A stretch of 64,000 nucleotides of DNA from Candidatus Omnitrophota bacterium (GCA_029261055.1 JAJDCA010000044.1:13867-77866); one strand, 5' to 3'; shown: positions 35,895-50,705, numbered from the stretch's first letter. Program-made: numbers and translations. Notes: generated by a model not told the origin, from the sequence alone.

Positions 35895-35899
35895 TCAAA

Positions 35900-37033
35900 T
35901 TGCACAAACAAAAACAAAATTATACATACCACCCTTTTGAATTAGCTTTCTGCGGTTATTCCAATTCCGGAAAAACCACACTGATCACACAACTTATTAA
36001 GACTCTTTCCAAGAAATATAAAATTGGATACATCAAACACGACGTCCATAAATTTTGCATGGATCACGAAGGCAAGGATACTTATCAGGTTCGAAAGAGT
36101 GGTGCGCATACTGTTTTTATCAGTGATTCCGAACATAGTGCGTGTATTCATGGATCGAGCCAGAATTTATTCGCACATCAACCTATTTTTCTGGAATCGG
36201 ATATTGTTTTAGTAGAAGGATATAAATCATCCGATATACCAAAAATTGTGTTGCTGGATAAGGATAAAACCATCTTAGAAGATTTAAAGAATCAGAAATT
36301 TACGAATATTGTGGCCGTTGTTGGGCCGATGGATGTGGAGGATGATATTTCAGAAAAATACCCTTATTTCCATCGCGATGATATTGAGGGAATAAAGCAA
36401 TGTGTTCTCAGACATATATCTGATAAAATTAAAGAAACACCTCTTTACGGTCTTGTTTTAGCGGGAGGGCGCAGTACACGCATGAAAAAAGATAAATCTT
36501 TACTTAATTATCATGGCAAACCTCAAATTCAACATGCAAGCGAATTTCTTACAAAATTCTGCACCAAAGTCTTTATTTCAAATAGAGACGAGCAATCAGA
36601 AATCGCAAATCACAGTAAATCCCCTCAAATTCACGATACATTTCTAAATATCGGCCCTTTAGGCGGAATCCTTTCAGCCATGACCACGCATCCAAACGCC
36701 GCCTGGCTTGTATTGGCCTGTGATTTACCTTTTATCACGGATCAGACAATCGAATATTTGATCAAAAATCGACATCCATTTAAGTTTGGCTCAGCCTATA
36801 AAAGCGCACAAAATGACCTTCCCGAACCCTTATGCGCTATTTATGAACCAAAATTCAGACCACGCCTGTTCCAATTTCTAGGCCAAGGCCTTCAATGCCC
36901 TCGAAAAATCCTCATAAACTCCGATATTGCCCTTTTTGACCTTCCAGAAAAATCCGCCTTGAATAATGTTAATCATCCTGAAGAATATGTTGAAACCAAA
37001 AATATTCTATCAACAAACCGCGCAAAATTTTAG
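35900..37033 (+). CDS. mobBA: Fused MobB (GTP-binding) - MobA (molybdenum cofactor guanylyltransferase)
   Basis: N-terminal Walker A (GYSNSGKTTLI, MobB-like). C-terminal LAGGRSTRM and LACDLPF motifs of MobA. Confidence 0.8.
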   Translation: MHKQKQNYTYHPFELAFCGYSNSGKTTLITQLIKTLSKKYKIGYIKHDVHKFCMDHEGKDTYQVRKSGAHTVFISDSEHSACIHGSSQNLFAHQPIFLESDIVLVEGYKSSDIPKIVLLDKDKTILEDLKNQKFTNIVAVVGPMDVEDDISEKYPYFHRDDIEGIKQCVLRHISDKIKETPLYGLVLAGGRSTRMKKDKSLLNYHGKPQIQHASEFLTKFCTKVFISNRDEQSEIANHSKSPQIHDTFLNIGPLGGILSAMTTHPNAAWLVLACDLPFITDQTIEYLIKNRHPFKFGSAYKSAQNDLPEPLCAIYEPKFRPRLFQFLGQGLQCPRKILINSDIALFDLPEKSALNNVNHPEEYVETKNILSTNRAKF

Positions 37034-37077
37034 AATGATTCACTTGACGAAATTAAATCGTGCAGTAGAATATTTTT

Positions 37078-38952
37078 ATGCCGCTCAAAGTCCGCATTCC
37101 GGATGACAATTATTGGAAAGAACAAATTAAATGTCAATATGCCTGCCCGGTACACACCGATGCACGTGGATACGTGCGTGCGGTTGCAGACGGAGATTTT
37201 GACAAGGCTTATCTCATTGCACGTGCACCAAATCCGTTAGCCTCGATTTGCGGGCGGATTTGCGGGGCACCGTGTGAAGCGGCTTGTCGACGTGGCAGCG
37301 TGGATAAAAGTATTTCGATTCGTGCGCTTAAACGTTCCGCTGTTGACCATCATCAATACCAAGACAACCAGCCGCTTAATCTCATCCAAAAAATAAAAAC
37401 ATCCTTACAAAATCGTGATTGTTCCGACCTTGAAGATTTAGGTGGGTTATTCCAGAATTTTGATAATCAAAAAATGCCTAAAACAGAGGGGCAAAGCATT
37501 GGCATTATCGGCTCCGGCCCGGCGGGATTAGCTGCCGCGCATGATTTGGCCCTGATGGGATTTTCTGTCATCATTTATGAAATGGAATCGGTCCCGGCAG
37601 GGATGTTGTATTTAGGGGTGCCGGCCTACCGTCTTCCGCGTGAACTCATCGAGGCGGAGGTAGATGTCATTAAAGCTTTAGGTGTTGAAATCAAAACGAA
37701 TTGTACTATTGGTAAAGATATTACTTTTGATGCTTTACGCAAAAAACATCAAGCGGTTATTATTGCGGTCGGATGCAAGAAGTCTCGTTCAATTCCGTTG
37801 CCAGGAATTGACGCCGAAGGGGTGATTGGTGGTGTCGAATTTTTAAGAGATGTTTCTCTGAATTTACCGCATACCATCGGGAATAAAGTCGTCGTGATCG
37901 GTGGTGGTAACGTGGCCTATGATGTGGCCCGTTCGGCTCTTCGACAACAACAAATGGATGTGGCCGCCACGGCCTTGCATGAACGCGAAGGGATTAAGGT
38001 TACTTTGTCTTGTTTAGAACGGGAAGATGAAATGTTGGCGGATGAAATTGAAATCTTAGAAGGGGAAGAAGAAGGGGTCACTCGACAAAATGGGTATGGT
38101 CCTCAGGAAGTTTTAACAAAAAATAATAAAGTAACCGGTGTGGTATTCCATAAAGTGATTTCTATTTTTGATGAAAATAAACAATTTAATCCAAAATATG
38201 ATCCCAATCAATCCATCACAATTGAAGCGGACACAGTTTTATTGTCCGTGGGGCAACGTTCTGATATTTCTTTTGTAGATCCCAAAAAAGACGGCGTAAC
38301 GATTAATGATAGGGGGATTATGACGTGTGACCCTGACACTCTGGAAACGACGGCGTCGGGTGTTTTTCTTGCGGGTGATTTGGCGCATGGACCGCGACTC
38401 ATGATTGATGCGATTGCCAGCGGTAAAAAAGTAGCCCGTTCAATTTATCAAAAATTAATAGGCACAGCCTTTTCGTTTGACAGCAAACAAACGCATGTTC
38501 CTATTGAAAATTATTCGCGCGAGGCCGGTTACGAAAAAATTCGCAGACAAGTCTTGCAATCCGTAGAAGTTACCGATAGAATTTATAATCATACAACGGT
38601 GGTTGAAAAAGGTTTCACCTGTGGCCAGGCCAAGGTGGAAGGGGCCCGTTGTTTTGATTGCAGTGTCAACACGATCTTTGACGGTAATAAATGTATTCTT
38701 TGCGGTGGGTGTGTGGATGTGTGTCCTGAATTATGCCTTAAACTTGTTCCGATCGATGAACTCGATGGCGATAAAACATTTTCCGAATTAACAAATATTG
38801 TTAAAGAACAAAAATCCACTGATGAGTTAACTGCTATTATTAAAGATGAAGAAAAATGTATTCGGTGTTCCTTATGTGCCATTCGTTGTCCGGTTGATGC
38901 CATTACGATGGAACGATTTTCGTTTACAACAGCTACGTGTCAAAAAAAATAA
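37078..38952 (+). CDS. GltD-like NAD(P)H/FAD oxidoreductase with N- and C-terminal iron-sulfur domains
   Basis: 624 aa. N-terminal Cys clusters (CQYACPVHTDARG, CGRICGAPCEAAC) as in the glutamate synthase small subunit. Two Rossmann motifs (IGIIGSGPAGLAAA, VVVIGGGNVAYD). C-terminal 2x[4Fe-4S] (CILCGGCVDVCP, CIRCSLCAIRCP). Confidence 0.8.
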   Translation: MPLKVRIPDDNYWKEQIKCQYACPVHTDARGYVRAVADGDFDKAYLIARAPNPLASICGRICGAPCEAACRRGSVDKSISIRALKRSAVDHHQYQDNQPLNLIQKIKTSLQNRDCSDLEDLGGLFQNFDNQKMPKTEGQSIGIIGSGPAGLAAAHDLALMGFSVIIYEMESVPAGMLYLGVPAYRLPRELIEAEVDVIKALGVEIKTNCTIGKDITFDALRKKHQAVIIAVGCKKSRSIPLPGIDAEGVIGGVEFLRDVSLNLPHTIGNKVVVIGGGNVAYDVARSALRQQQMDVAATALHEREGIKVTLSCLEREDEMLADEIEILEGEEEGVTRQNGYGPQEVLTKNNKVTGVVFHKVISIFDENKQFNPKYDPNQSITIEADTVLLSVGQRSDISFVDPKKDGVTINDRGIMTCDPDTLETTASGVFLAGDLAHGPRLMIDAIASGKKVARSIYQKLIGTAFSFDSKQTHVPIENYSREAGYEKIRRQVLQSVEVTDRIYNHTTVVEKGFTCGQAKVEGARCFDCSVNTIFDGNKCILCGGCVDVCPELCLKLVPIDELDGDKTFSELTNIVKEQKSTDELTAIIKDEEKCIRCSLCAIRCPVDAITMERFSFTTATCQKK

Positions 38953-38955
38953 TTT

Positions 38956-39417
38956 ATGTCAAATTCTAACAAAAAAATAACCCGGAGAGATTTCTTAGGG
39001 TTATCTGCTTTGTGGACATGCCTTGCCGCATGGTTTTTCACATTTCTCGGTCTTCTTAAATTCCCCAAACCTGCATTATTACCTGATGTATCTAATGTCT
39101 TTAAAATTGGCCGTCCTGACGATATTCCAATAGATAGCGAAAAAATTTATGATGATAAAAAAGTCCTTATTGTACGCGACAATGAAGGGGTTTCTGCTGT
39201 TTCGTTGATTTGTACGCATTTAGGATGTATTGTTTCGAAAAGCAAAGATGGATTTTCATGTCCCTGTCATGGATCAAAATTTGATACCAATGGGGATGTG
39301 ATTGCAGGACCAGCCCCTCGGGGATTAAGCTGGCTTGAAGTAAGTCAACTTCCCAGTGGAAAATTAGTTGTGAATGCCGGGAAACGTGTGCCGGAGGGGA
39401 CGAAGTTTGTAGTTTAA
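38956..39417 (+). CDS. petA: Rieske [2Fe-2S] protein, TAT-targeted and membrane-anchored
   Basis: RRDFLGLSALW twin-arginine signal/TM. CTHLGC ... CPCHGS Rieske boxes. Confidence 0.85.
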   Translation: MSNSNKKITRRDFLGLSALWTCLAAWFFTFLGLLKFPKPALLPDVSNVFKIGRPDDIPIDSEKIYDDKKVLIVRDNEGVSAVSLICTHLGCIVSKSKDGFSCPCHGSKFDTNGDVIAGPAPRGLSWLEVSQLPSGKLVVNAGKRVPEGTKFVV

Positions 39418-39423
39418 AATTAT

Positions 39424-39490
39424 GGGCATGATAAATCATGCCCGTACAACGAGGTCGTGTTGTCCGTAGGGGCATAATTTATTATGCCCA
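39424..39490. repeat. REP-like stacked palindromic element, copy 2
   Basis: GGGCATGATAAATCATGCCCGTACAACG is identical to copy 1. It is followed by ACAAC..GTTGT and GGGGCATAAT-TT-ATTATGCCC palindromes. Sits in the Rieske-cytochrome b intergenic region. Confidence 0.6.
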
Positions 39491-39526
39491 ATATAAAATT
39501 ATCTTATCGATATCTGGAAATAATTA

Positions 39527-41065: not shown

Positions 41066-41118
41066 TGAGCACATAATTTATGGAGCGTAAGCGAACATAA
41101 ATTATCTGTGCGAATTAA

Positions 41119-41159
41119 CCCTGCGAAGCTCAACGCGAAAGCAATTGAGCGAAGCAGGG
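41119..41159 (+). promoter_or_regulatory. Structured 5' leader hairpin upstream of the decahaem cytochrome gene
   Basis: CCCTGC-GAA-GCTCAA-C-GC[GAAA]GC-AA-TTGAGC-GAA-GCAGGG forms a two-tier stem with symmetric GAA/GAA internal loops and a GNRA tetraloop. GC-rich in an AT-rich region. Confidence 0.4.
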
Positions 41160-41168
41160 TAAAATAAT

Positions 41169-43745
41169 ATGAAAAAACTCATTATATTTTCCAGTCTTGT
41201 CATCATCCTCGTTCTTCTTGCCGAAGCCAAGCGCGAAAATTTGAGCATGGATTGGCAAAAATATCAGAAGCAATACCGCAGTGAATTACTTCAATTAGCT
41301 GAAACACCTCAAGAAAAACAAATCGCCAAACAATATGCAATTCAAATGCGTCAGATTGTTCTTCCGGAACAAAATAAAGTGGATCGCTGTACGATTTGCC
41401 ATGTCGGTGTAGAAGACGGACGTATGGCCGATAAACCTAATCCACTTAAAACACATCCGGGCAATTATTTGGAAGTTCATGAAGTAGAAAAAACTGGATG
41501 TACCATTTGTCATGACGGACAGGGACGGGCGATTACCTTTGCTGAATCCAAAGCCCATGCTGAAGATAAATTTTGGGAAAAACCTGTTTTAAATAAACCC
41601 TTTGTGGAAGCAAATTGTTACCGTTGTCATCAAAATACGCTGGCCGCCACGCCGAATTATAATCACGGAAAAGAGTTGTTTGACACGAACGGATGTTTAG
41701 GGTGCCATCAAATTAATGGGAAAGGCGGCATCAAAGGACCGGATCTTTCTAATTTAGGTAATGCCAATTTTCACGTCAAAATGCCGACAGATCATAACCG
41801 TCATGACCTTTTACACAAATTCGACGAAAATGTTAATTTGGCCTATATTTATGAAGCCGTAAAAGATCCGCATGCCCAGCCGCTTGATTCCGCCATGGTC
41901 GATTATAAATTTACAGATGAAGATTCAATTGCTTTAACGGTGTATTTAAAAAGTTTATTAGATGATAGCGTACCTAAAGATTTATTAGCCACACGTAAAC
42001 CCCAAACACCTCTGACACCTTTACAACATGGCCAGCAATTATATGGCATGTATTGCATAGCCTGTCACGGGGAGGAAGGTAAAGGCACACATTTAAACGA
42101 ACTTAGTAAAATCGGACCGGCGATCGGTAACACCGAATTTTTGGCGATTGCAGATGATAAGTTAATCAATCATGTCATCAGTTTTTCAAGGGGTGGTGAA
42201 ATGCCGCCATTTAAAAAGAGTGGAGGACTGACAACCGAAGAAATTGCTCATATTACGGAATACATTTTATCTTTGAAAAAAACGCCGCCTTCGTTTGAAG
42301 AAGTCAGCACCGTTGAAGGAAATGCAAAATACGGCGCAGCTTTTTTTGCTACCAATTGTGCCAGCTGTCACGGTGCCGATGCCAATTTTGAACAAGACCT
42401 TGTTGGTCCCACATTAAATAATCCAACCCTTTTAGGTTTAGCCACGAAAGAATTTTGGTATGACACTATTGTCAACGGTCGCCTCGGCACCGCCATGCCT
42501 TCATGGCATTTTTTAAATAAAACCCAAATTGCCGATGCGATTGCTTACCTTGAATCTCTCAAGCCTGAGCCACTTGATACAAAGAAGGTATTGGCCTTAA
42601 TACAAAAAGGGGCTTCACTGGAAAACGGGGAAAAACTTTACAAAGGAAATTGTTCAAGTTGTCACGGTTTATCCGGTGAAGGCGGTTTAGCCCCAAGCCT
42701 TAACAATAAAGAATTCCACCAAATTACCGATGCGAAATTTATTTTAAAGGTCTTAATCGAAGGCCGCGAAGGTACAGCCATGCCGAGCTGGAACCATTTA
42801 CCCGAAGAAAATGTGGCTGACCTGATTGCTTACATTAAATCATGGCAGGTGGGTGATTCTGTTGAATTGTCGAACGAGCGTATCATCAGCTCGGAGATAC
42901 AAGGAAAAGCCTTGTTTCAAGAATCGTGTCAAAAGTGTCACATGGTGGGGCGGGGTAGTGTAGTGGCACCGGCTATTTTTTCCAAAGGATTTCTCCGACA
43001 GGCGAGCGATCAGTACATAAAGCACAGCATCATGTATGGACGCGGGCACACCGCCATGCCGCCGGCCTTAGTCGGTACAAGCGGTGTGGTTGAGTTAACA
43101 GATGAAGAAATCAATTCCATGGTGGCCTACATCCGTTCATTTGAAAAATTCCCGGTTGAACTTAAAGGGATGTCCATGTACTACGGTAACAATGCTGAAG
43201 GAAAAGAATTGTTCGGTCGCAGTTGTGCGCAATGTCACGGAGATCATGGTGAAGGCGGCGTTGGTCCGGCGATTGGGAAAAAAGGATTTTTGGATAGTGT
43301 TTCCGACGGATTTATTTATGCGATGTTGCGCATAGGACGTCCAGGATCTGAAATGAAACCATTCCCGCCTCACGGAGATGGTTTTAGTAATTTAAGTGAT
43401 ACTGAAGCTTCCGATATTATCAGCTTTTTGCGATCTAATATTTCTAACGCCGAGAAACATACGAAAAAGGTTAGAGGTTATGCCCAGAGAGGTAAAGAAT
43501 TTTTTGCTGCGTATTGTGCGCAATGTCATGGAATAAATGGACAAGGTGGCATCGCTCCTGATTTGAATAATAAGAATTTTATGGACTCTGTGTCCGATAG
43601 TTATTTACAAGCAACGATGTCATTGGGACGACACGGCACTCAAATGAAACCCATGATGAAAGGTGGAAGCGGGGTTGTTGAACTTTCATCACAGGAAGTT
43701 AATAATATTATTAGTTATTTGCGATCATTGATCGAAATAGAATAG
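41169..43745 (+). CDS. Multihaem c-type cytochrome (about 10 CxxCH), N-terminal multihaem region plus tandem class-I monohaem domains
   Basis: Signal/anchor MKKLIIFSSLVIILVLLA. CxxCH motifs: CTICHV, CTICHD, CYRCHQ, CLGCHQ, CIACHG, CASCHG, CSSCHG, CQKCHM, CAQCHGDHG, CAQCHGING. The last six are each followed by a Met-containing GTAMP / GxxM motif typical of His/Met monohaem domains. Confidence 0.85.
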   Translation: MKKLIIFSSLVIILVLLAEAKRENLSMDWQKYQKQYRSELLQLAETPQEKQIAKQYAIQMRQIVLPEQNKVDRCTICHVGVEDGRMADKPNPLKTHPGNYLEVHEVEKTGCTICHDGQGRAITFAESKAHAEDKFWEKPVLNKPFVEANCYRCHQNTLAATPNYNHGKELFDTNGCLGCHQINGKGGIKGPDLSNLGNANFHVKMPTDHNRHDLLHKFDENVNLAYIYEAVKDPHAQPLDSAMVDYKFTDEDSIALTVYLKSLLDDSVPKDLLATRKPQTPLTPLQHGQQLYGMYCIACHGEEGKGTHLNELSKIGPAIGNTEFLAIADDKLINHVISFSRGGEMPPFKKSGGLTTEEIAHITEYILSLKKTPPSFEEVSTVEGNAKYGAAFFATNCASCHGADANFEQDLVGPTLNNPTLLGLATKEFWYDTIVNGRLGTAMPSWHFLNKTQIADAIAYLESLKPEPLDTKKVLALIQKGASLENGEKLYKGNCSSCHGLSGEGGLAPSLNNKEFHQITDAKFILKVLIEGREGTAMPSWNHLPEENVADLIAYIKSWQVGDSVELSNERIISSEIQGKALFQESCQKCHMVGRGSVVAPAIFSKGFLRQASDQYIKHSIMYGRGHTAMPPALVGTSGVVELTDEEINSMVAYIRSFEKFPVELKGMSMYYGNNAEGKELFGRSCAQCHGDHGEGGVGPAIGKKGFLDSVSDGFIYAMLRIGRPGSEMKPFPPHGDGFSNLSDTEASDIISFLRSNISNAEKHTKKVRGYAQRGKEFFAAYCAQCHGINGQGGIAPDLNNKNFMDSVSDSYLQATMSLGRHGTQMKPMMKGGSGVVELSSQEVNNIISYLRSLIEIE

Positions 43746-43754
43746 GAGATTATT

Positions 43755-46421
43755 ATGCCAAAATCTAAGGGATCTATAACACGAAGAAATTTTTTGAAAG
43801 GAACTGTCGCTGGCGCAGCCGCGTTAGGCATGTCGGATACATTGTTTAGCCCGACTAAGGTCATGGCCGAGGAATTAGGCCTTGTTAATAAAGTTATCGA
43901 GATGCCGGCACAATGTCCCTATTGTGGCGTCGGGTGTGGCTCCATTATTAAATTTGATCAAAAATCTGCAAAGATTATCGGCGTTGTCCCGGATAAACAA
44001 CATCCAACCAATAAAGGCGTGCAATGCATTAAAGGATTAAATGCCGACGAACCAACTTATGTTGATCGACTTAAAAAAGTCTTAGTACGAAAAGATATGA
44101 GTGATCCTTTAAGAGGGTATGTATCTAAATCTAAAGGTAGCTTTGATGACAAAGATTTTCATGAAGTTTCTTTTGAAGAAGCCGAAGAATTGGTCGCCCA
44201 TAAAATGGGGGAAATTTACAAAGCACATGGTGGCAACAGTATTGGATTATACGGTTCAGGCCAATTGACCGTTGAAGCGCAGTGGATCGAAAACAAACTC
44301 GTTAAAGGTGTTTTAGGTTCCAACTCCATTGAAGCGAATGCCCGTATGTGTATGACGTCGGCTGTAACGGGCTATTTTGCAACCTTAGGCAGTGACACCC
44401 CACCACTTTCGTATGACGATATTGAAATGTCGGATATGATTACCTTCTGGGGGCACAATCCTCGAGGAGCTCACCCGATTGTCTTTTGGCGTGTGGCAGA
44501 TCATAAAAAATCTAAAGACATCCCAACCGTTGTGTCTGATCCCAGAAGAACAGGATCTGTGCAAGCTTTAGAAGGCATTAATCCACGGAATAGTTTTCAT
44601 TTTCAAAGTATCAACGGTGATATTTCGATTTTAAACGCCATCGGCCATGTTCTCATTAAAGATCATGAAGATATTATTGATTATCCTTTCTTAAAAGAAC
44701 ATGTAACAGGTTGGCAAAAATACGTGAAGATGGTCACAGAAGAATACTCTCCGGAACAAGTACAAGATCGTTCAATGGTAGATCCGCAGCTTATACGCAC
44801 GGTCGCCGCTCAATGGGCAGATGCGACGCGTAAACGCAAACGCCGTGGAACTGGTGGCGTCATTTCTTTCTGGGGTATTGGTTATAATCAACATCTGCAT
44901 GGACAGCATAATGTCATTAGCCTTATTAATCTCCATGCCTTAACAGGCAATATTGCTAAGCCGGGATGTGGTCCATTCTCCATGACAGGACAACCAAATG
45001 CCATGGGTGAACGACTTATGGGGGGATTAACAGGACGCCTTCCTTTTAATATCGGCATAGAGAATGAAAAACATCGTGATTGGATTGGAAAAATTTGGAA
45101 TGTTCCCAAAGAACGTATGGACAAAATGGCGATGGAGAAAAATCCTGGAATGATGATCGGTTTATTTGAACGAGCAATGAAAGGTGATGTAAAGGGTATG
45201 TTTTATATGTACACAACCCATATTCATCAACCGGATCTGAATACATTGATTCGACCTGCTCTTTCTAAATTATTTCTTGTTGTCCAAGATATTTACCGGC
45301 ATGCCCCGAATAACCTTTATGGCGATGTCATCTTTCCAGCTTTGACCTGGGGTGAATGGCAGGGGGGAACATACATTAGTTCAGAAAGACGATTTAACGT
45401 CGTTGACGGTATTGGAAAAGGTGCACCCGGACTTGAAAATTGTGTTCCTGATCTTGATTTGGCCATTGATAAAGGAAAAAAATTGGCCAATATAGTCGGT
45501 TTAGACGGCGATAAAATTTTCCCTTATAAAAAGAAAAAATTTCATCCAGATGGGCCCATGCTTTATGATTCTGAAGAAGTGTTTGAAGAAATCATACGAG
45601 GTTCTAAGGGAACGGATGCTGATTTAACAGGTATGTTAGAAGTGCGCGATCGTGACGGTATCGGCCTTTATGAGCAACTTCGTCGTTTAAGAGGCATGCA
45701 ATGGCCGGCGCCAACCTATGAAATAGCCAAACAAGGCGGCGTTAAACGACGCTATATGGGGCAAGAAGGATGGAAAGATAAAACATATGGTATGTTTCGG
45801 CATAAGGACGGTAAGTTGCATATGAAAGCTTGCCAACAGGATTATTCTAAAAGAAAAGAAGTTACGGCTGAATTAGAAAAATTTGGAACAGTAGAAGGTT
45901 ATTATACCATTGATCATCCGGAAGTATTAACCAAGGCGCGCGATATGGCCCTCACACCGGAGATGCCGGATTCTGAAGATCTTGGAAAACATTGGAAAGA
46001 AATCCCGAAAAATAAATACCCGTTCTGGCTTGGTTTAGGAATCGTGTATGAACATTTTCATACAGCCAAAACGATTCGCGGCGCAACCACTCGACGTTTG
46101 GTACCGGAACAGTATGTAGAAATGCATCCGGATGACGCCGAAGAAAATGGTCTGCGTGATGGAGATCAAATAAAGGTTATTACACGACGGGGCGAATATC
46201 AAGGGCGTGTCAGTGTCGGGGGGTATCGTAGTAAAGTCAAGCCGGCACGAAATGAAGTGCCGAAAGGATACATTTTTTCTCCATGGAATTTATCTGTGGC
46301 GGATTCGGCAGATCCGAAAAAAAATAAATGGTTAGTTAATGCCGTTTCTCACAGAGCCTATGATCCTGTTTCCGGTCAAGCTGACTTCAAAAAACTTGCG
46401 GCTCGGATTGAAAAGATTTAA
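43755..46421 (+). CDS. Divergent periplasmic NapA-like bis-MGD molybdoenzyme (nitrate-reductase-like; substrate not proven)
   Basis: 888 aa. TAT signal (ITRRNFLKGTVAGAAALG). N-terminal 4Fe-4S box CPYCGVGCG ... C-x-KG aligned to NapA. NARMCMTSAV aligns to the NapA Mo-ligand cysteine region (NARLCMASAV in the canonical NapA at 61197). Confidence 0.85.
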   Translation: MPKSKGSITRRNFLKGTVAGAAALGMSDTLFSPTKVMAEELGLVNKVIEMPAQCPYCGVGCGSIIKFDQKSAKIIGVVPDKQHPTNKGVQCIKGLNADEPTYVDRLKKVLVRKDMSDPLRGYVSKSKGSFDDKDFHEVSFEEAEELVAHKMGEIYKAHGGNSIGLYGSGQLTVEAQWIENKLVKGVLGSNSIEANARMCMTSAVTGYFATLGSDTPPLSYDDIEMSDMITFWGHNPRGAHPIVFWRVADHKKSKDIPTVVSDPRRTGSVQALEGINPRNSFHFQSINGDISILNAIGHVLIKDHEDIIDYPFLKEHVTGWQKYVKMVTEEYSPEQVQDRSMVDPQLIRTVAAQWADATRKRKRRGTGGVISFWGIGYNQHLHGQHNVISLINLHALTGNIAKPGCGPFSMTGQPNAMGERLMGGLTGRLPFNIGIENEKHRDWIGKIWNVPKERMDKMAMEKNPGMMIGLFERAMKGDVKGMFYMYTTHIHQPDLNTLIRPALSKLFLVVQDIYRHAPNNLYGDVIFPALTWGEWQGGTYISSERRFNVVDGIGKGAPGLENCVPDLDLAIDKGKKLANIVGLDGDKIFPYKKKKFHPDGPMLYDSEEVFEEIIRGSKGTDADLTGMLEVRDRDGIGLYEQLRRLRGMQWPAPTYEIAKQGGVKRRYMGQEGWKDKTYGMFRHKDGKLHMKACQQDYSKRKEVTAELEKFGTVEGYYTIDHPEVLTKARDMALTPEMPDSEDLGKHWKEIPKNKYPFWLGLGIVYEHFHTAKTIRGATTRRLVPEQYVEMHPDDAEENGLRDGDQIKVITRRGEYQGRVSVGGYRSKVKPARNEVPKGYIFSPWNLSVADSADPKKNKWLVNAVSHRAYDPVSGQADFKKLAARIEKI

Positions 46422-46455
46422 AATACAAAACTAAAGACCGTAAAGCTCAGACTTT

Positions 46456-46490
46456 AGACCAAGGATTAATTTAAAATCTTTGGTCTTTTG
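46456..46490 (+). terminator. Candidate rho-independent terminator after the NapA-like gene
   Basis: AGACCAAGG - 13-nt loop - CTTTGGTCT gives a 9-bp stem with one G-U pair, followed by TTTT. Confidence 0.5.
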
Positions 46491-46583
46491 TCTATGCAAG
46501 AAAATCGCCTTTGTCGATAACCTGAAGGCGTATTTTTGGTGCCGATAGGAAAGTTTTATACTTTCCTATACGGGCAAAAAATT

Positions 46584-47171
46584 ATGATCAGAAGAAATTT
46601 TATTAAACGCACCTTAATATTTTTTGCCGCGAGTACTCTTTATTCACTCATGGGAAACCATGTGGTCTTTGGAAAAACCAGAAAAATATTCAAGAAATAT
46701 TTACGCCCCCCCGGAGCTCTTCCTGAAAAAGATTTTTTAGCGACGTGTATTAATTGTCATCGTTGCGGACAAGCCTGCCCCAGCGATTGTATTCAGTACA
46801 TTAATGATCCATTAAATCCTTCAATGCACGACACGCCCTACATTAATCCACGACAGAAGGCTTGTATTCTTTGCATGAAATGCACACAAGCCTGCCCGTC
46901 AGGATCTTTACAACGTATTGATAATGATGATTCCGATTCTATTCACAAACACGTAAAAATGGGAATTGCGGTTGTGGATACAAATATTTGCAATTCTTAC
47001 AATGGATATTCCTGCGGCGTATGTATCCGGGCTTGTCCTTTAGGAGAAGAAACTTTAAAAACAGGCAACTGGGAACGTCCAATCGTTAACCCTGATAACT
47101 GTGTTGGCTGCGGGCTTTGTGAACAAAGCTGTATTCACTATCCACAGGCGATAAGGGTAGAACCGATATGA
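46584..47171 (+). CDS. napG: NapG/MauM-like periplasmic 4x[4Fe-4S] ferredoxin, TAT-exported
   Basis: MIRRNFIKRTLIFFAAS TAT-like signal. Four ferredoxin boxes (CINCHRCGQACP, CILCMKCTQACP, CGVCIRACP, CVGCGLCEQSC). I set the start at the internal ATG rather than track ORF 46536. Confidence 0.75.
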   Translation: MIRRNFIKRTLIFFAASTLYSLMGNHVVFGKTRKIFKKYLRPPGALPEKDFLATCINCHRCGQACPSDCIQYINDPLNPSMHDTPYINPRQKACILCMKCTQACPSGSLQRIDNDDSDSIHKHVKMGIAVVDTNICNSYNGYSCGVCIRACPLGEETLKTGNWERPIVNPDNCVGCGLCEQSCIHYPQAIRVEPI

Positions 47172-48598
47172 TCACAAAATTTCGACGACTAATTCAATGG
47201 AGTATTTTCTTAGGCATCATCCTCATTACTGTCTTAAATTATTACGAAAACCAAAAAGTAAAATATGGAGGAGAGTTGGTTATTCAAGAATCACCCATTT
47301 TACGGACTGTAGATAAAATTTTTGGGCAGCTTGAAAACCGCACAAAAATTGTCACTTTTTTACAAGGGGATGTTTGGTCGTTTCAAATAGGCTCTATTAA
47401 AATTACGGATCCATTGGCCTTTATTGGCAATATCAGTCGCACCAAAGCTATCTATTGGCCACTTTTTTTAGCCGCTTTAATCCCGATCATTCTGACAATT
47501 CTTTTAGGAAAAGTGTTTTGTAGTTGGATTTGTCCGATGGGACTTTTGTTTGAATTAAATGCAAAATTACGCACCGTGTTACAAAAATTCGCTTTACCGT
47601 TAGGTAATTTTACATTGCCTCCTTGGTGCAAATATATTGTATTAGGCGGTGGAATTTTTACAGGGCTTGTTTGGGGTGCCCATTATTTCTTTCTGATTTA
47701 TCCCCCCAAAATTATTTCCGGTGAAATTTATTTTAGTGTCATTAAATCTTCATTAGGATATGGCGTTGCATTTCTTTTTCTGCTTTTAGCGATTGAATTA
47801 TTTCTTGCCCCACGATTTTGGTGTCGTTCGCTTTGTCCCGGAGGGGCATTGTACACCTTATTGAGTCAATTTCGCTTTTTACGCATTAAAAACGATTTAA
47901 ATCGCTGCACAAACTGCGGCATTTGCGATACCTTGTGCCCATATGACATCACCCCGTCCAAAGGAAAATTATCATTGGAATGTGATCATTGTTCTCTATG
48001 TATTACTAAATGCCCAGTCAAAAGCCTTTCTTTTAAGATGCCCAACCGTACACACACCCCCGGGGTGTGTATATGGTTAATCTTAACCATGTGTCTTTTT
48101 TTCAATGCGACAACGGCATCAGCGCATCATATCCGCGGATTACCACATTATGGATATTCTGAAAATTATCCGCAGACGCCAACGTATGAAGAAATTCGTG
48201 TGGTTGATGATTGGAAAGTTAATTTTTCATATATAAAAATTTTTGAAACCAAAAATTGTGATTTAGCTGTTTATTTAAAAAATACAAAAACCGGGAAACC
48301 ATATGCTGGAAAAATTCGGTTTAAAGTTTTTGGCGAAAGGGAAGACCCTGAAGCTTCGCCTTATTATGATACGCATTTTGATCCAACCAATACGTTCCGC
48401 GTAGGATGGGCTTATGAATTGGATGGTGTTTACATTGTGAGAGCCCAATTTTTTGATGAAGGCAAAGAGTATATTGAAGATTTTCGTATGCAAATAGGCA
48501 AAGTTGGATTTAATCCGTTATGGTGGGCTATTCCAGGAATATTTGTTTTAATTTTAATCATATTAATTGCTGTGAAACAACGGAGGAGCTCTAAATGA
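47168..48598 (+). CDS. napH: NapH/MauN/CcoG(RdxA)-family membrane polyferredoxin with C-terminal periplasmic beta-domain and terminal TM
   Basis: TM helices with CSWICPMG and CRSLCPGG (CxxCP) motifs. Two ferredoxin boxes (CTNCGICDTLCP, CDHCSLCITKCP). ~170-aa C-terminal extension ending in a TM helix, as in CcoG/FixG. ATGA overlap with napG. Confidence 0.75.
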   Translation: MITKFRRLIQWSIFLGIILITVLNYYENQKVKYGGELVIQESPILRTVDKIFGQLENRTKIVTFLQGDVWSFQIGSIKITDPLAFIGNISRTKAIYWPLFLAALIPIILTILLGKVFCSWICPMGLLFELNAKLRTVLQKFALPLGNFTLPPWCKYIVLGGGIFTGLVWGAHYFFLIYPPKIISGEIYFSVIKSSLGYGVAFLFLLLAIELFLAPRFWCRSLCPGGALYTLLSQFRFLRIKNDLNRCTNCGICDTLCPYDITPSKGKLSLECDHCSLCITKCPVKSLSFKMPNRTHTPGVCIWLILTMCLFFNATTASAHHIRGLPHYGYSENYPQTPTYEEIRVVDDWKVNFSYIKIFETKNCDLAVYLKNTKTGKPYAGKIRFKVFGEREDPEASPYYDTHFDPTNTFRVGWAYELDGVYIVRAQFFDEGKEYIEDFRMQIGKVGFNPLWWAIPGIFVLILIILIAVKQRRSSK

Positions 48599-50121
48599 TT
48601 ATGTCGGGTTTACCAAAGTGGTTATTTTTTACAAGTATTGCGCTTGTGTTGATGATTTCATTTATCCTGGTAGAGTGGTTAAACCGATCCAATCGTAAGG
48701 CCAAGCCCTATCCTAAGTTTAACATTCTTTCCATTCCCGGCGTCAAGGCTTGTGTGAAGGCCCCATTTTTTAAATTCCTTTTTCAATTTCCTGTATTTTT
48801 AATTTTCTGCCTTATTATTTATGCCGGTATTTACGGACATGCCGTGATTAATATTGCCCCTGTATTGACTTGGACCATATGGTGGGCAGGACTCATTTTT
48901 CTAATTTTATTTTTTGGTAAGGCCTGGTGTTTTGTGTGTCCCTGGGATTTTGTCGCGACTCTTTTTCAATATTTAAAACCATTCGGTGTCAGCAAAAAAC
49001 CTTTTACATTGGGATATAAATGGCCAAGGTGGCTGAAGAATATTTATTTGGCTATTGGATTATTCGTTCTCTTAACATGGTTTGAGCTAGGATATCATGT
49101 GACGGCCTCACCACGCTTTACAGCAATATTAGCGATTGTCATTGTTTTTCTCTCCGTCATTCCGGCTTTAATTTTCGAAAAACGTTCTTTTTGTAAATAC
49201 GGGTGCCTCATTGGACGCATTTCAGGATTGTATGCCATGTTTTCACCTGTGGAAGTGCGCAGTGCAGACTTGGATGTATGTACAAAATGCAAGACAAAAG
49301 ATTGTTATACCGGAAATGATAAAGGTAATGCTTGCCCAACATCACTTGTGATTCCTCAAATCAAAGAAAATACCTATTGTATTTTATGTACAGAATGTGT
49401 CAAAAGTTGTCCGCACGATAATGTCGCCATTAATGTACGCCCCTTTGCAACGGATTTGAAAAATTTTACAAAAGTAAAAAGTGATGAAGCCATACTGGCC
49501 ATTATTCTTTTGGCCTTAACATCCTTTCATGGACTCACCATGACCCCACTGTGGGATTCACCGACAGGTAATTCAATAATCCATTCTATACGTTCCATCA
49601 CAGGATTTGGACCATTAGGGGCCTTTACATTAGGCATGTTTTGTGTGAATGCAGCGTTAGGTTTATTTTATTATCTAATCGCCTTAATTACACAACGATT
49701 TGTCGGAGAGCCGCAGGTTTCAACTAAAAAAGTTTTTTTGTATTACGCCTATTCTTTGCTACCCATTGCTTTGTTTTATCACTTAGCGCATAATGCCATG
49801 CATGTATTCATGGAGGGGCAAGTTGTCGTCCCCTTAATTTCGGATCCATTAGGGCAGGGTAATAATTTCTTTGGCACGGCGCAATGGTATTTGGCACCGC
49901 TGTTATCACACAGCAGCATTTGGTATCTGCAGGTGGGACTTGTCCTCATCGGACATATTTTTGGTATTATTATCGCGCATCATGTTTCACGAAAACTTTA
50001 TTCTGATCGCAGGGCCGCCATACGATCATTAGTTCCTATGCTCATCGGCATGATTTTTTACTCATTTCTTTCCTTATGGATTATGCATTTGGATATGAAT
50101 ATGCGGAGTAGTTTGATGTGA
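48595..50121 (+). CDS. Second NapH/MauN-family membrane polyferredoxin with extra C-terminal His-rich TM helices
   Basis: CFVCPWD and CKYGCLIG CxxCP-type motifs in TM context. Ferredoxin box CILCTECVKSCP. The C-terminal ~200 aa have 4 additional TM helices carrying conserved His (HLAHNAMH, GHIFGIIIAHH). Confidence 0.7.
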   Translation: MIMSGLPKWLFFTSIALVLMISFILVEWLNRSNRKAKPYPKFNILSIPGVKACVKAPFFKFLFQFPVFLIFCLIIYAGIYGHAVINIAPVLTWTIWWAGLIFLILFFGKAWCFVCPWDFVATLFQYLKPFGVSKKPFTLGYKWPRWLKNIYLAIGLFVLLTWFELGYHVTASPRFTAILAIVIVFLSVIPALIFEKRSFCKYGCLIGRISGLYAMFSPVEVRSADLDVCTKCKTKDCYTGNDKGNACPTSLVIPQIKENTYCILCTECVKSCPHDNVAINVRPFATDLKNFTKVKSDEAILAIILLALTSFHGLTMTPLWDSPTGNSIIHSIRSITGFGPLGAFTLGMFCVNAALGLFYYLIALITQRFVGEPQVSTKKVFLYYAYSLLPIALFYHLAHNAMHVFMEGQVVVPLISDPLGQGNNFFGTAQWYLAPLLSHSSIWYLQVGLVLIGHIFGIIIAHHVSRKLYSDRRAAIRSLVPMLIGMIFYSFLSLWIMHLDMNMRSSLM

Positions 50122-50705
50122 CCAAAGAAAACCTTTCCCGACGAGATTTTTTTAAAAAAGGATTAAAGTCGTTGGCTCAAGGCGCCAAGGAAACCGCCAC
50201 GATTTTATATTCATCGGAAGAACCCATTACGCCCAGCCGAACTCTTGTACGCCCTCCCGGAGCATTACCTGAAAAAGAATTTCTTGAAAAATGCACACGA
50301 TGTAATGAATGTGTGAAAGTCTGTCCTGAAGAATCCATTATGAAATTTGTCGGCGAAGAATCGCCCCTGCATTTAACACCCATGCTTTCCGTGCGTAAAT
50401 CACCGTGTGTGCTTTGTGAAGATTTTCCGTGTATCAAAGTATGCGAACCCGAAGCCTTAGTGATGCCGGCTGCACGTGAAGAAGTAAAAATGGGCATAGC
50501 GGTGATTAATGAAAAACTTTGTTATGCCTGGCAAGGGGGCCAAGATTGTGATTACTGTATTAAAGAATGCCCCATAGGAGAAAAAGCTATTTATTTTGAT
50601 GAAGTACGCCGGCCGCATGTATCGTCGGAACATTGTACTGGCTGCGGATGCTGTGAATATATTTGTCCCAGTCGTCAACCGGCGATTGTTGTCGGCACGC
50701 GTTAA
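50118..50705 (+). CDS. Second NapG/MauM-like periplasmic 4x[4Fe-4S] ferredoxin, TAT-exported
   Basis: SRRDFFKKGLKSLA TAT signal. Boxes CTRCNECVKVCP, CVLCEDFPCIKVC, CDYCIKECP, CTGCGCCEYICP. Confidence 0.75.
   Translation: MTKENLSRRDFFKKGLKSLAQGAKETATILYSSEEPITPSRTLVRPPGALPEKEFLEKCTRCNECVKVCPEESIMKFVGEESPLHLTPMLSVRKSPCVLCEDFPCIKVCEPEALVMPAAREEVKMGIAVINEKLCYAWQGGQDCDYCIKECPIGEKAIYFDEVRRPHVSSEHCTGCGCCEYICPSRQPAIVVGTR

Follow-up and report, generated by a model that had tools for sequence, protein, structure and literature searches.

A conserved gene cluster in Candidatus Omnitrophota combines a Rieske/cytochrome b–NAD(P) module with a distinct Nap/Nas-like molybdoenzyme

Nine adjacent genes at 37078–50705 on the + strand of a 64,000-nucleotide stretch of Candidatus Omnitrophota DNA (the window) encode a Rieske/cytochrome b complex with a putative NAD(P) subunit, a decahaem cytochrome c, a molybdoenzyme that we call MoA and four NapG/NapH-like proteins (Table 1). 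The arrangement is conserved far beyond chance. We hold it about evenly probable that the products form one membrane-bound respiratory assembly in which the Rieske/b complex feeds MoA. An earlier note, made from the sequence alone, had proposed this cluster; all nine ORFs lie where it placed them, and profile annotation with Pfam and NCBIfam bore out all of its module assignments. No description of the gene set was found in the literature searched, and sequence comparison indicates that MoA represents an undescribed, widespread family.

Table 1. Features of the cluster and its flanks (window coordinates)
Feature	Position	Strand	Evidence or remark
MoaA, molybdenum cofactor synthesis, directly upstream	34935..35894	+	Pfam Radical_SAM + Mob_synth_C
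MobB-MobA fusion, GMP addition for bis-MGD	35900..37033	+	Pfam MobB + NTP_transf_3
Promoter-like site TTGACG-16-TAGAAT	37044..37071	+	7 nt upstream of first gene; weak evidence
GltD/NfnB-like cytoplasmic flavoprotein	37078..38952	+	Pfam, NCBIfam
Rieske [2Fe-2S] protein	38956..39417	+	Pfam Rieske; Tat-like RR motif, membrane anchor
Cytochrome b6 fused to subunit-IV-like part, extra C-terminal helices	39527..41065	+	Pfam Cytochrome_B
Membrane-anchored decahaem cytochrome c	41169..43745	+	Exactly 10 CXXCH
MoA, Tat-exported bis-MGD/[4Fe-4S] enzyme, distinct Nap/Nas-like clade	43755..46421	+	TAT_signal, Molybdop_Fe4S4, Molybdopterin, Molydop_binding
12-bp hairpin then UUUUGUCU, MoA-G1 spacer	46456..46486	+	Candidate terminator, attenuator or mRNA-stabilising element
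G1, periplasmic NapG-like poly-[4Fe-4S] ferredoxin	46536..47171	+	NCBIfam NapG 134 bits, under cutoff 269
H1, NapH-like membrane polyferredoxin	47168..48598	+	Clear NapH-like match; two CX3CP motifs
H2, divergent NapH-like protein	48595..50121	+	NCBIfam napH_ weak, E 1.8e-10
G2, second periplasmic NapG-like ferredoxin	50118..50705	+	NCBIfam NapG 137.5 bits, below cutoff; Tat motif SRRDFFK
Outer-membrane porin-like protein (Alginate_exp-like)	50918..52147	+	Weak Pfam match, below cutoff
MoaD/ThiS-like sulfur carrier, molybdopterin synthesis	52239..52487	+	Pfam ThiS

Type A loci have the flavoprotein, Rieske, cytochrome b, multihaem c, MoA and NapG/H genes; in type B loci, MoA is preceded by a dihaem cytochrome c only, without the Rieske/cytochrome b set. 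About a quarter of the metagenome loci with sufficient upstream DNA are type A (9 of ~36), and the remainder have the dihaem cytochrome only. A synteny search found the type A gene order in at least seven phyla, on contigs from Omnitrophota, Verrucomicrobiota, Gemmatimonadota, Planctomycetota (two classes), Calditrichota and Nitrospirota that include Gemmatimonadales, Phycisphaeraceae, Planctomycetaceae and Calditrichaceae. Type A hosts in Verrucomicrobiota, Planctomycetota, Gemmatimonadota and Calditrichota are mostly regarded as organoheterotrophs. Most hosts seem to be heterotrophs with no obvious need for reverse NAD(P)+ reduction, a point against the assembly proposed below.

The decahaem cytochrome is a direct link between the bc complex and MoA, because in it a hexahaem Rieske/b subunit (residues 1–465) is fused to a pair of dihaem class I units (about 480–858). 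Residues 2–465, with haems 1–6, are colinear with the hexahaem protein of a related Rieske/b module, and residues 484–854, with haems 7–10, are similar (29–41% identity) to the dihaem cytochromes encoded ahead of MoA in type B loci. Together with the synteny, this fusion upholds the earlier view of the genes as a functional unit.

Spacing within the cluster is often short: G1/H1, H1/H2 and H2/G2 overlap by 4 nt, and the GltD/Rieske and decahaem/MoA spacers measure 3 and 9 nt. The widest intergenic gaps are 103–162 nt, with gaps of ~105 nt ahead of the cytochrome b and decahaem genes. Strong terminators between all modules would have spoken for separate units; one strong terminator-like hairpin divides MoA from the NapG/H genes (spacer fold -31.9 kcal/mol, z = -4.8). 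With its U-run, it may yield two transcripts from the cluster. Promoter-like sites in the region, including the one before the first gene, are no more numerous than in shuffles.

The flavoprotein has two N-terminal FeS clusters (Fer4_20), FAD and NAD(P) Rossmann folds (Pyr_redox_2) and a C-terminal 2x[4Fe-4S] domain, and no signal peptide was seen in its sequence. Its best solved relatives are the NfnABC-type 9bov/9bp5 and FwdF (5t5i). The best PDB match of the Rieske protein is 9rk4 (E 3.6e-24), which is Kuste4569 of the anammox bacterium Kuenenia stuttgartiensis. Cytochrome b matches NCBIfam ExtP and ExtQ below cutoff and keeps four haem-ligand His and an APWY Qo-type motif across seven type A loci. 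In other phyla, the Rieske/b–NAD(P) module (55–59% identity) pairs with an alpha-beta-gamma enzyme of the type II DMSO-reductase family, which takes in chlorate reductases, selenate reductases and nitrite oxidoreductases.

MoA is of Nap/Nas type at its active site, where residues C199-M200 and TGQPNAMGE-R420 align with the catalytic positions of Nap and Nas. FdhF, with its Sec/Cys-His and Arg, is not matched in this way, and MoA passes neither the curated Fdh nor the curated Nas models. It is not a canonical NapA either (350 bits against a curated cutoff of 904; ~28% identity), and is ~60–100 residues longer. The earlier note had labelled the protein 'divergent NapA-like', but it is not a divergent NapA: within the Nap/Nas/Fdh superfamily it forms a clade of its own, which falls outside those of NapA and Nas in a neighbour-joining tree on 677 columns, not a model-based phylogeny. 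This clade is tight, with 51–88% identity over more than 12 phyla, which suggests a distinct, constrained function, and it has motifs of its own (NQHxHGQH and SPWNLSVADSADP). One family member is PBPRB0650 of Photobacterium profundum SS9.

NapG/H-like genes follow MoA in every member of the clade. To judge by this context, the NapG-NapH-NapH'-NapG' set is an integral partner of the MoA family, and the earlier statement that the modules are normally separate does not hold for it. G1, which likely starts at ATG 46584 (MIRRNFIK, with Tat motif RRNFIK), and G2 match E. coli NapG in phmmer searches (1.8e-26 and 5.8e-30). H1 also contains, by fusion, a periplasmic beta-sandwich domain, in which an HHIxGxPHYxY motif is invariant, and has a C-terminal membrane helix; its AF2 model (pLDDT 79.8) has a fold that marginally matches the Cu-binding proteins CrdA and FetP. 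The extra C-terminal multi-helix domain of H2 matched no Pfam family, and its FHG.TM.P.W and YHLAHNxxH motifs are conserved in 12 homologues.

Genes for molybdenum cofactor synthesis lie on both sides of the cluster. MoaA homologues flank six related loci, and a MobA-like gene lies within the cluster at two. Downstream, homologues of the porin-like protein, a possible anion channel, adjoin the cluster in four related loci, one of which has the MoaD/ThiS-like gene in the identical position. As the earlier note had said, neither napB nor napD was found inside the nine-gene cluster. It did not report that the window holds a canonical NapD-NapA-NapB set 10 kb downstream (60847–63998; NapA 940 bits, cutoff 904). 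Other respiratory genes in the window encode an HAO-like octahaem protein and Psr-like and SdhAB-like proteins.

In the assembly that we propose, a b6-type Rieske/cytochrome b complex would oxidise menaquinol at its outer (Qp) site. The high-potential electron would pass from the Rieske cluster to the c-type subunit of the complex, here the decahaem protein, and on to MoA in the periplasm, with its [4Fe-4S] cluster and its bis-MGD molybdenum centre. MoA would then reduce an oxyanion of high potential; nitrate, which would give nitrite, is the most probable one. The low-potential electron would cross the membrane via the b haems and either re-reduce quinone, as in an ordinary proton-motive Q cycle, or reach the FAD of the GltD-like subunit by way of four FeS clusters. 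For that branch, we judge NAD(P)+ reduction by quinol-based bifurcation, as proposed for anammox, slightly more likely than NAD(P)H input, which is nearly as likely. The NapG-NapH-NapH'-NapG' set would connect MoA by a second route, a quinol or transmembrane electron link of NapGH type.

The same subunits and cofactor chain might instead start from NAD(P)H. Electrons would run from the flavoprotein FeS chain to the b haems and the Qn site, giving a self-contained NAD(P)H:nitrate (or other oxyanion) oxidoreductase that primes the Q cycle. This reaction would be downhill throughout, and organoheterotrophs must re-oxidise the NAD(P)H that their catabolism generates. However, GltD/NfnB/SudA-type subunits usually work with NADPH, an anabolic carrier, and the window already encodes quinone-reducing dehydrogenases (SdhAB-like). 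Further, the sole published proposal for such a module, electron bifurcation in anammox bacteria, has NAD(P)H formed and is backed by high Rieske potentials of +303/+335 mV (PMC12954380). We regard NAD(P)H as a possible but less likely donor.

The substrate of MoA is most likely nitrate, to judge by its catalytic Cys-Met and Arg positions, which are those of Nap and Nas. The presence of an ordinary napDAB in the organism makes this less self-evident. Since MoA fails the NapA model, falls outside the NapA and Nas clades and shares the window with a bona fide NapA, it could reduce another oxyanion (e.g. chlorate, iodate, selenate or tellurate) and leave nitrate to the downstream NapAB. The distinct function suggested by MoA conservation, and the pairing of the Rieske/b module with relatives of chlorate and selenate reductases, are in keeping with such a substrate. 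Yet several nitrate reductases per bacterium are common, and the genetic setting points to nitrogen oxides: hemerythrin genes lie in at least 13 related loci, and the window itself has the HAO-like gene besides napDAB. NarQ/NarX-like sensor kinases (PilJ-HAMP-GAF-HisKA_3) flank 16 type B loci and NarL-type regulators 17, although the NarQ-like association is due mostly to a single gammaproteobacterial group of metagenome contigs and concerns type B loci, not the present window. Another oxyanion is possible, on balance doubtful.

MoA could also work in the oxidative direction, taking electrons from a periplasmic substrate such as nitrite, with the proton-motive force driving them back through Rieske/b to quinone and NAD(P)+. 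Class I cytochrome c domains, of which the decahaem protein has seven (Pfam), are often high-potential, and the Rieske/b module pairs with the enzyme family that includes nitrite oxidoreductases. The active site is of reductase type, however, and we know of no oxidising member of the Nap/Nas clade. The neighbouring genes (Psr-like, Nap, HAO-like) are anaerobic-respiratory. NapGH-type modules act as quinol dehydrogenases (PMC3475470), and although anammox reverse electron flow does use nitrite oxidation (PMC3578206), we consider an oxidative role improbable. That the genes are mere neighbours, separately transcribed and unrelated units of a respiratory gene island, would fit the hairpin, the ~105-nt gaps and the wealth of further respiratory genes in the window, but it sits badly with the 9-nt decahaem/MoA spacer and the G/H overlaps, is contradicted by the conserved gene order and the decahaem fusion, and is very improbable.

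Among the closest known counterparts of the proposed assembly are the complexes R/b-2 and R/b-3 of Kuenenia stuttgartiensis (Kuste4569-4574 and Kustd1480-1485); the earlier note had drawn an analogy with anammox complexes of this kind. It is borne out by the Rieske match and by the flavoprotein templates, which are those reported for Kuste4570. In both systems a Rieske protein and a b6-type cytochrome b with subunit IV go together with a multihaem c subunit, which replaces cytochrome f/c1, and with a cytoplasmic NAD(P) oxidoreductase that carries FAD and four FeS clusters; both are encoded beside a high-potential nitrogen-oxide enzyme (putatively so here). In Kuenenia that enzyme is an HAO-like octahaem protein; here it is a Nap/Nas-like molybdoenzyme. 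The present system further differs in the fusion of cytochrome b to subunit IV, in a c subunit with ten haems, of which four represent the donor cytochrome of MoA itself, in its additional NapG/H double module and in its hosts, which are not anammox bacteria.

The epsilonproteobacterial Nap systems (napAGHBFLD; Campylobacter jejuni, Wolinella succinogenes) likewise pair NapG/NapH with a Mo enzyme in the periplasm and lack NapC. There, menaquinol electrons pass through Rieske/cytochrome bc in electrogenic respiration, as demonstrated experimentally in C. jejuni (PMC6195509); here, the genes point to the same route. However, those systems rely on a general QcrABC encoded elsewhere, without a flavoprotein, and on canonical NapA with NapB and NapD, whereas the present cluster has a dedicated bc complex, a cytochrome fused to the enzyme's donor, an NAD(P) module and an enzyme of a different clade. 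The nap cluster of Caldithrix abyssi (Cabys_2564-2557, epsilon-Hao adjacent) shares Rieske, cytochrome b and napG/napH genes and the absence of napB/napC, but has no GltD-like subunit or decahaem protein, a tetrahaem NapM and a NapA described as Nap-family (PMC5317091).

Haloarchaea and Methanoperedens couple an external nitrate-reducing molybdoenzyme, genetically or functionally, to Rieske/cytochrome b, as may be the case here if the substrate is nitrate. The adjoining Rieske/cytochrome b and periplasm-facing Nar genes to which the earlier note referred are documented (PMC4683180). Further products of the Methanoperedens nar operon are a NapH-like protein extended by five C-terminal helices and small proteins of the periplasm with a single helix each (PMC4683180); by description, these are similar to H2 and to the domain of H1 that lies in the periplasm. 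These systems differ in their Nar-type catalytic subunit (type II DMSO-reductase family) and have no NAD(P) subunit. MoA resembles canonical NapAB (E. coli, Cupriavidus necator) in its Tat signal, its [4Fe-4S] motif, a Mo-ligating Cys with Met directly after it, the conserved Arg and a dihaem c-type cytochrome as supplier; its donor, however, is of class I and not of NapB type, and NapD does not accompany it.

The earlier note had described nine genes that join a flavoprotein, a Rieske/cytochrome b pair, a multihaem cytochrome, a molybdoenzyme and NapG/NapH-like proteins. This description was correct: Pfam and NCBIfam scans confirmed each module. The + strand ORFs at 37078-50705 encode, in order, a GltD-like flavoprotein (624 aa), a Rieske protein (153 aa), a cytochrome b (512 aa), a decahaem cytochrome (858 aa), the molybdoenzyme MoA (888 aa), and the NapG-like (G) and NapH-like (H) proteins G1, H1, H2 and G2 (211, 476, 508 and 195 aa). 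Spacing is 3 nt between the flavoprotein and Rieske genes and 9 nt between the decahaem and MoA genes, and the last four genes overlap by 4 nt. Wider gaps precede the genes for cytochrome b (109 nt), the decahaem protein (103 nt) and the first NapG-like protein (114-162 nt). The flavoprotein has Fer4_20 and Pyr_redox_2 domains and a C-terminal 2x[4Fe-4S] domain, and the Rieske protein carries an RR motif and a membrane anchor. Cytochrome b is b6-like in its N-terminal part (NCBIfam ExtP, 234 bits, under cutoff) and subunit-IV-like (ExtQ) in its middle part, with an APWY Qo-type motif and four conserved haem-ligand histidines; by eye, the Cys at the position aligned with that of b6-type haem cn is absent. 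The c-type subunit is membrane-anchored and has exactly ten CXXCH motifs.

MoA is a bis-MGD enzyme with a Tat export motif (SITRRNFLKG) and the NapA-type CX2CX3C...C [4Fe-4S] motif (CPYCGVGC...C91). Its C199-M200 and R420 align with the Mo-ligand Cys, the following Met and the Arg of the TGQP...R segment in Escherichia coli and C. necator NapA, and its segment TGQPNAMGE-R420 matches the Nap/Nas segment bearing this conserved Arg. Cys199 also aligns with Sec140 of the formate dehydrogenase FdhF, and the next residue is Met as in Nap/Nas, whereas Fdh has His; Met200 and Thr411 occupy the positions of FdhF His141 and Arg333. The best curated matches are NapA (NF010055/TIGR01706, 350.4 bits versus a cutoff of 904 and 331.9 versus 930.6), Fdh-alpha (TIGR01591, 309 versus 666) and the assimilatory NasA/NasC/NarB models (262 versus 1000 and 234 versus 1100), all far under threshold. 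The closest solved structures are NapA (E ~1e-78). Identity is 28.5% to C. necator NapA and about 29-30% to plasmid-borne assimilatory reductases. When MoA was modelled with AlphaFold2 on 12 aligned sequences, the result (mean pLDDT 54) was too poor for a fold search.

A word-indexed search returned MoA relatives in the thousands. The best 120 are 62-88% identical, almost all under generic protein names, and the taxa named among them are Omnitrophica, Verrucomicrobia, Myxococcota, Hydrogenedentota and Bdellovibrionota. Beyond these, identity falls steeply: an exhaustive search of 50%-identity cluster representatives found one at 56%, one at 50% and one at 41%, and no other full-length relative above about 40%. 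Close representatives of the family also miss every curated cutoff. The family has its own motifs (NQHxHGQH, EHFHTAKTIR and SPWNLSVADSADP). A distance-based neighbour-joining tree covered 118 sequences; its references were NapA from E. coli and C. necator, FdhF from E. coli, NarB from cyanobacteria and NasA from proteobacteria. In this tree the family is monophyletic in 50 of 50 bootstraps and branches outside NapA (both heterodimeric and monomeric-type) and outside Nas/NarB.

That MoA is an ordinary formate dehydrogenase is ruled out by its active-site residues and the curated cutoff; that it is an assimilatory nitrate reductase, by its Tat signal, the curated cutoffs and its position outside the Nas/NarB clade. 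The earlier reading of a divergent NapA-like enzyme holds for the catalytic residues, which are of the Nap/Nas kind; the tree and the cutoffs set the enzyme apart from NapA. Because the curated cutoffs are missed, identity falls steeply and the family is monophyletic outside NapA and Nas/NarB, MoA belongs, on its sequence, to a separate clade within the Nap/Nas/Fdh superfamily, one without a name in the sources and literature searched. No NapD- or NapB-like ORF occurs within 37078-50705; in the window such ORFs lie only beside a canonical NapA, at 60847-63998.

Coordinates of features in the window and in homologous loci (Lnnn)
Sequence	Feature	Coordinates	Strand	Remarks
Window	Succinate dehydrogenase/fumarate reductase-like set	13511-16874		234-aa protein without family match, SdhA-like flavoprotein, SdhB-like FeS protein
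Window	Cofactor-supply genes	19014-26625; 34935-37033; 52239-52487		HemE, HemY-like oxidase, system II cytochrome c maturation (ResB-like, CcsA-like); MoeA, MoaA, MobB-MobA fusion, MoaD
Window	LysR regulator	26674-27582	-	Divergent, upstream of Psr/Phs-like cluster
Window	Psr/Phs-like cluster	27716-32788	+	PsrB-like Fer4_11 protein, NrfD/PsrC-like membrane protein, 853-aa Psr/Phs-like catalytic subunit (PhsA 321 bits, under cutoff)
Window	NarJ/TorD-like chaperone (Nitrate_red_del)	32168-32788	+
Window	Putative outer-membrane proteins	32838-34088; 34165-34821; 50918-52147		Porin_5 protein; 218-aa secreted protein without family match; Alginate_exp-like porin
Window	Promoter-like site	37044		TTGACG-16-TAGAAT, ends 7 nt 5' of first gene
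Window	MoA	43755-46421	+
Window	MoA-G1 spacer	46422-46535
Window	G1	46536-47171	+
Window	H1	47168-48598	+	C-terminal part 48128-48598
Window	H2	48595-50121	+	C-terminal part 49450-50121
Window	G2	50118-50705	+
Window	Nitrate/nitrite respiration cluster	56369-63998	+	Tetrahaem cytochrome (4 CXXCH), NrfC/DsrO-like FeS protein, NrfD/DsrP-like membrane protein, HAO/HDH-like octahaem cytochrome (8 CXXCH)
Window	NapD-like	60847-61122	+
Window	Canonical NapA	61197-63545	+	940.3 bits versus cutoff 904
Window	NapB-like		+	3' of canonical NapA, cut by window end
L091	Rieske/b module with type II enzyme	10001-20763
L092	Rieske/b module with type II enzyme	10001-20658
L173	Sister-clade cluster	6050-12744		GCA_021608135.1
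L003	H1-domain homologue	14264-14911
L008	H1-domain homologue	15250-15861
L019	H1-domain homologue	15190-15777
L120	Type B flanking gene	3015-5030
L008	Type B flanking gene	2342-3037
L138	Type B flanking gene	1977-4550
L139	Type B flanking gene	11132-11725

We compared contigs around homologues with the window proteins by phmmer. By best hits alone, the source organism would be a member of Omnitrophota. A first genome scan with a whole-protein alignment was swamped by NarB/NasA, which share the CPYCGVGC pattern, and only 16 of the 80 loci kept held family members; a repeat on metagenomes used a C-terminal alignment specific to the family. The loci show two recurrent architectures. Type A keeps the window's order, from flavoprotein, Rieske, cytochrome b and a long multihaem cytochrome to MoA and the NapG/H genes after it. 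It is present in nine of the roughly 36 metagenome loci whose upstream sequence is 6.9 kb or longer. Its hosts include Omnitrophica (L001), Verrucomicrobia (L003), Gemmatimonadales (L007), Phycisphaeraceae (L013), Calditrichaceae (L018), Planctomycetaceae (L021) and Nitrospirae (L090). In type B the sole cytochrome beside MoA is a dihaem class I cytochrome c. This form is found in Pseudomonadota (Gallionellaceae, Motiliproteus, Hyphomicrobiaceae, Rhodospirillaceae, Photobacterium), Myxococcota, Bdellovibrionota, Hydrogenedentota, Sericytochromatia and Thermodesulfobacteriota. Cultured hosts of the family include Photobacterium profundum SS9, P. frigidiphilum and P. indicum; Candidatus Colwellia aromaticivorans also has it. 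The Photobacterium and Colwellia homologues are annotated only as 'molybdopterin-dependent oxidoreductase', and a NapC/NirT gene lies 3' of their cluster.

Several other genes recur in the flanks of type B loci: a thioredoxin-like DUF255 protein of 700-850 aa, one end of which is DsbD_N-like (15 loci), an unannotated 134-aa protein (13), hemerythrin (8 + 3), NapC/NirT cytochromes (5 + 3) and a PRMT-like methyltransferase with a SEC-C motif (7). Sister to MoA is a clade (P0122, 837 aa, 50% identity) with a reduced cluster of NapF-like ferredoxin, TatA, dihaem cytochrome c, the MoA homologue, NapG, NapH and a 180-aa protein, preceded by MobA-, MoeA-, MobB- and MoaD/MoaE-like genes and TatC.

The two architectures meet in the decahaem cytochrome. 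Residues 2-465 (haems 1-6) are colinear with the hexahaem subunit of a Rieske/b module in L091 (33.6% identity, 267 bits). The region best aligned with type B dihaem cytochromes is residues 484-854 (haems 7-10), which hold two tandem copies of them (identity 29-41%, some 100-140 bits). Type A homologues carry ten CXXCH motifs in five loci and eight in a sixth, against two in type B cytochromes. The decahaem protein is thus a fusion that joins the c-type subunit of a bc complex to the donor cytochrome of the MoA family, and this fusion is the strongest sequence evidence that electrons would pass directly between the Rieske/b complex and MoA. Synteny and the fusion rule out chance adjacency of the modules.

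NapG/NapH-like genes follow MoA in every locus with enough downstream DNA, usually in the order G, H, (G), a periplasmic protein of about 200 aa, H2, G2; in some loci H1 and H2 are fused (1055-1070 aa). The two pairs in mirrored order were as the earlier note had them, genes and order alike; its view of them as a normally separate module does not stand, because their presence in all testable loci makes NapG-H-H'-G' an integral partner of the MoA family and not an extra. G1 and G2 have Tat motifs and four Cys clusters, with NapG as best NCBIfam match (134 and 137.5 bits versus a cutoff of 269). H1 has CSWICP and CRSLCP (CX3CP) and ferredoxin Cys motifs (NapH, 117 bits versus 213), and H2 has CFVCP (CX2CP) and FCKYGC without the Pro (NapH, 41 bits).

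Both NapH-like proteins have extra C-terminal domains. In H1 some 130 residues form a conserved domain in the periplasm, with a membrane helix after it; the domain's N-terminal motif HHIxGxPHYxYxxxYPQxPT is invariant, and in most type B loci its homologue is a separate protein of about 200 aa. In the AF2 model the domain is a beta-sandwich, and the Foldseek matches, to the Cu-binding proteins CrdA (best, E 1.1e-3) and FetP, are marginal, a lead rather than a finding. In H2 the extra part is a multi-helix membrane domain with the conserved motifs DEA..LT.FHG.TM.P.W and LP.A..YHLAHN..H..E, which look like a metal- or haem-binding site. These two domains and the ORF at 34165-34821 have no Pfam family at E <= 1. 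The probable role of the double module is to connect MoA with the membrane by a second, NapGH-type route.

Among all PDB chains, the top match of the window's Rieske protein is 9rk4 (88.8 bits), identified by its depositors as Kuste4569 of the anammox bacterium Kuenenia stuttgartiensis, a subunit of the complex with the highest expression among the Rieske/b complexes there that bear an NAD(P) oxidoreductase (PMC12954380); the direct sequence comparison with Kuenenia complexes covered the Rieske domains. The closest solved relatives of the flavoprotein are NfnABC-type 9bov/9bp5 and the polyferredoxin FwdF (5t5i), and 9bp5 and 5t5i are the structural homologues reported for Kuste4570, the Kuenenia NAD(P) flavoprotein (PMC12954380). 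By domain content, and matched to Kuenenia by description, the cluster holds the subunit set of the anammox-type NAD(P)-linked complex: Rieske protein, b6-type cytochrome b/subunit IV, a multihaem c in place of cytochrome f/c1, and an NAD(P)/FAD subunit with four FeS clusters (PMC12954380).

Flavoprotein homologues are numerous; one (P0331) is 100% identical, and those at about 55% identity (Acidobacteriia/Terriglobia and others) keep the order flavoprotein, Rieske, cytochrome b, hexahaem cytochrome. In L091 and L092 the module is followed by a type II DMSO-reductase-family alpha subunit that passes TIGR03479 (1187 and 1168 bits versus a cutoff of 985); next come an FeS protein as beta subunit, a haem b protein of EB_dh type as gamma subunit, and a chaperone resembling NarJ; hemerythrin lies 5' of both modules, with Rrf2 too in L091. 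The window proteins share 55-59% identity with these for cytochrome b and the flavoprotein and 47% for Rieske. Since related modules adjoin type II DMSO-reductase-family enzymes as well as MoA, the NAD(P)-linked Rieske/b module is portable: in addition to its HAO-like partner in Kuenenia, it serves periplasmic molybdoenzymes of two or more unrelated kinds. A far broader generalisation, which we consider unlikely, is that such complexes are a general portable device that docks on MoA-clade, type II DMSO-reductase-family or HAO-like enzymes and bifurcates quinol electrons, so that oxyanion reduction pays for NAD(P)H formation, with the MoA clade and its obligatory NapG-H-H'-G' module forming a new, widespread type of periplasmic nitrate/oxyanion reductase.

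The count of promoter-like sites in the region is no higher than in shuffles, so the site ahead of the first gene carries little weight. The sole strong internal signal is in the MoA-G1 spacer, a 12-bp AT-rich hairpin followed by UUUUGUCU (U-run). The spacer folds at -31.9 kcal/mol (z = -4.8), and a second hairpin lies downstream, just 5' of the likely G1 start. The spacer could act as a terminator or an attenuator, or could set subunit stoichiometry through RNA processing or stability. Given this hairpin, the cluster may be one operon with an internal attenuator/stabiliser or two units (flavoprotein to MoA; G1 to G2). The conserved gene order as a whole argues that both parts belong to one system.

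Other respiratory genes lie around the cluster. A second, ordinary nitrate/nitrite respiration cluster follows it, and a third molybdoenzyme cluster, in B-C-A order, precedes it. Genes for cofactor supply are interleaved with the respiratory clusters, and the succinate dehydrogenase/fumarate reductase-like set indicates a quinone-based respiratory chain in the host. Putative outer-membrane proteins bracket the nine genes and are possibly anion channels for the substrate; homologues of the Alginate_exp-like porin adjoin the cluster in L001, L010, L109 and L127.

Nitrate is the leading candidate for the substrate of MoA, with roughly an even chance of being correct, because the active-site residues are of Nap/Nas type, because NarX/NarQ-like kinases, NarL/LuxR-type regulators and hemerythrins recur nearby, and because the window is itself a respiratory island. 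A sensor kinase of NarX/NarQ architecture (PilJ-type sensor, HAMP, GAF, HisKA_3) flanks sixteen type B loci; most of this evidence is from a single group of marine metagenome contigs that resemble one another, and the loci are of type B, not type A. Its PilJ-type sensor bears a P-box-like motif (AINxAGxxRM), and its top curated matches are NarQ and NarX, both under cutoff. A NarL/LuxR-type regulator is present in seventeen loci, and hemerythrin genes recur close to related loci. As the organism has an ordinary NapAB, MoA may differ from it in substrate, affinity or bioenergetic role.

The best-supported reading of the cluster is a dedicated bc-dependent quinol:oxyanion oxidoreductase. Menaquinol would be oxidised at the Qp site; the high-potential electron would leave the Rieske cluster and reach MoA by way of the decahaem protein, and the low-potential electron would travel through the b haems to Qn or the flavoprotein. 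For the flavoprotein we lean slightly towards NAD(P)H-making by bifurcation over NAD(P)H input. The module is consistently tied to enzymes whose known relatives use very high-potential substrates, GltD/NfnB-type subunits are NADPH enzymes, and the Rieske potentials measured in Kuenenia suit a bifurcation scheme.

Full-text literature searches found no description of the gene set, the MoA clade or the P. profundum locus tags PBPRB0643-0651. Each part is of a kind already known, be it the Rieske/b complex that carries an NAD(P) subunit, the Nap-like enzyme or NapGH. The novelty lies in the conserved way in which a fused cytochrome unites them, in a separate molybdoenzyme clade for which the G-H-H'-G' module is obligatory, and in an NAD(P)-linked Rieske/b module that is portable beyond anammox bacteria. 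The anammox complexes that bind NAD(P) have been a standing puzzle since they were first noticed, in bacteria that are difficult to study, and making NAD(P)H would be a third use of Q-cycle machinery, proposed and never demonstrated. The same module in many other phyla, hard-wired by the fused cytochrome to MoA or paired with a type II DMSO-reductase-family enzyme, supports on comparative grounds a role linked to high-potential oxyanion reduction and offers more experimental systems to choose from. The MoA clade, large and strongly conserved behind the database label 'molybdopterin-dependent oxidoreductase', is now delineated. Its presence in the cultured, genetically tractable P. profundum SS9 makes directly testable its substrate and any role it has in the cycling of nitrogen or other oxyanions in sediments, groundwater and the deep sea.

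Parts of the proposed scheme have counterparts in known systems. Electrogenic, bc-dependent Nap respiration has an experimental precedent in C. jejuni (PMC6195509), and the nap cluster of Caldithrix abyssi holds Rieske/cytochrome b genes (PMC5317091). By description, a NapH-like protein of the Methanoperedens nar operon has five extra helices in a layout like that of H2 (PMC4683180). Canonical cytochrome bc1 and b6f complexes have a monohaem cytochrome c1 or cytochrome f, whereas the cluster has a decahaem c-type subunit. In Kuenenia, where Rieske potentials are +303 and +335 mV, the modelled route runs from the b haems through four FeS clusters to FAD and supports the older proposal that quinol electrons are bifurcated between NAD(P)+ and a high-potential acceptor; quinol-driven NAD(P)+ reduction is unproven even in these complexes (PMC12954380). 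The Kuenenia module has an HAO-like partner, whereas the partner of the window's module is MoA.
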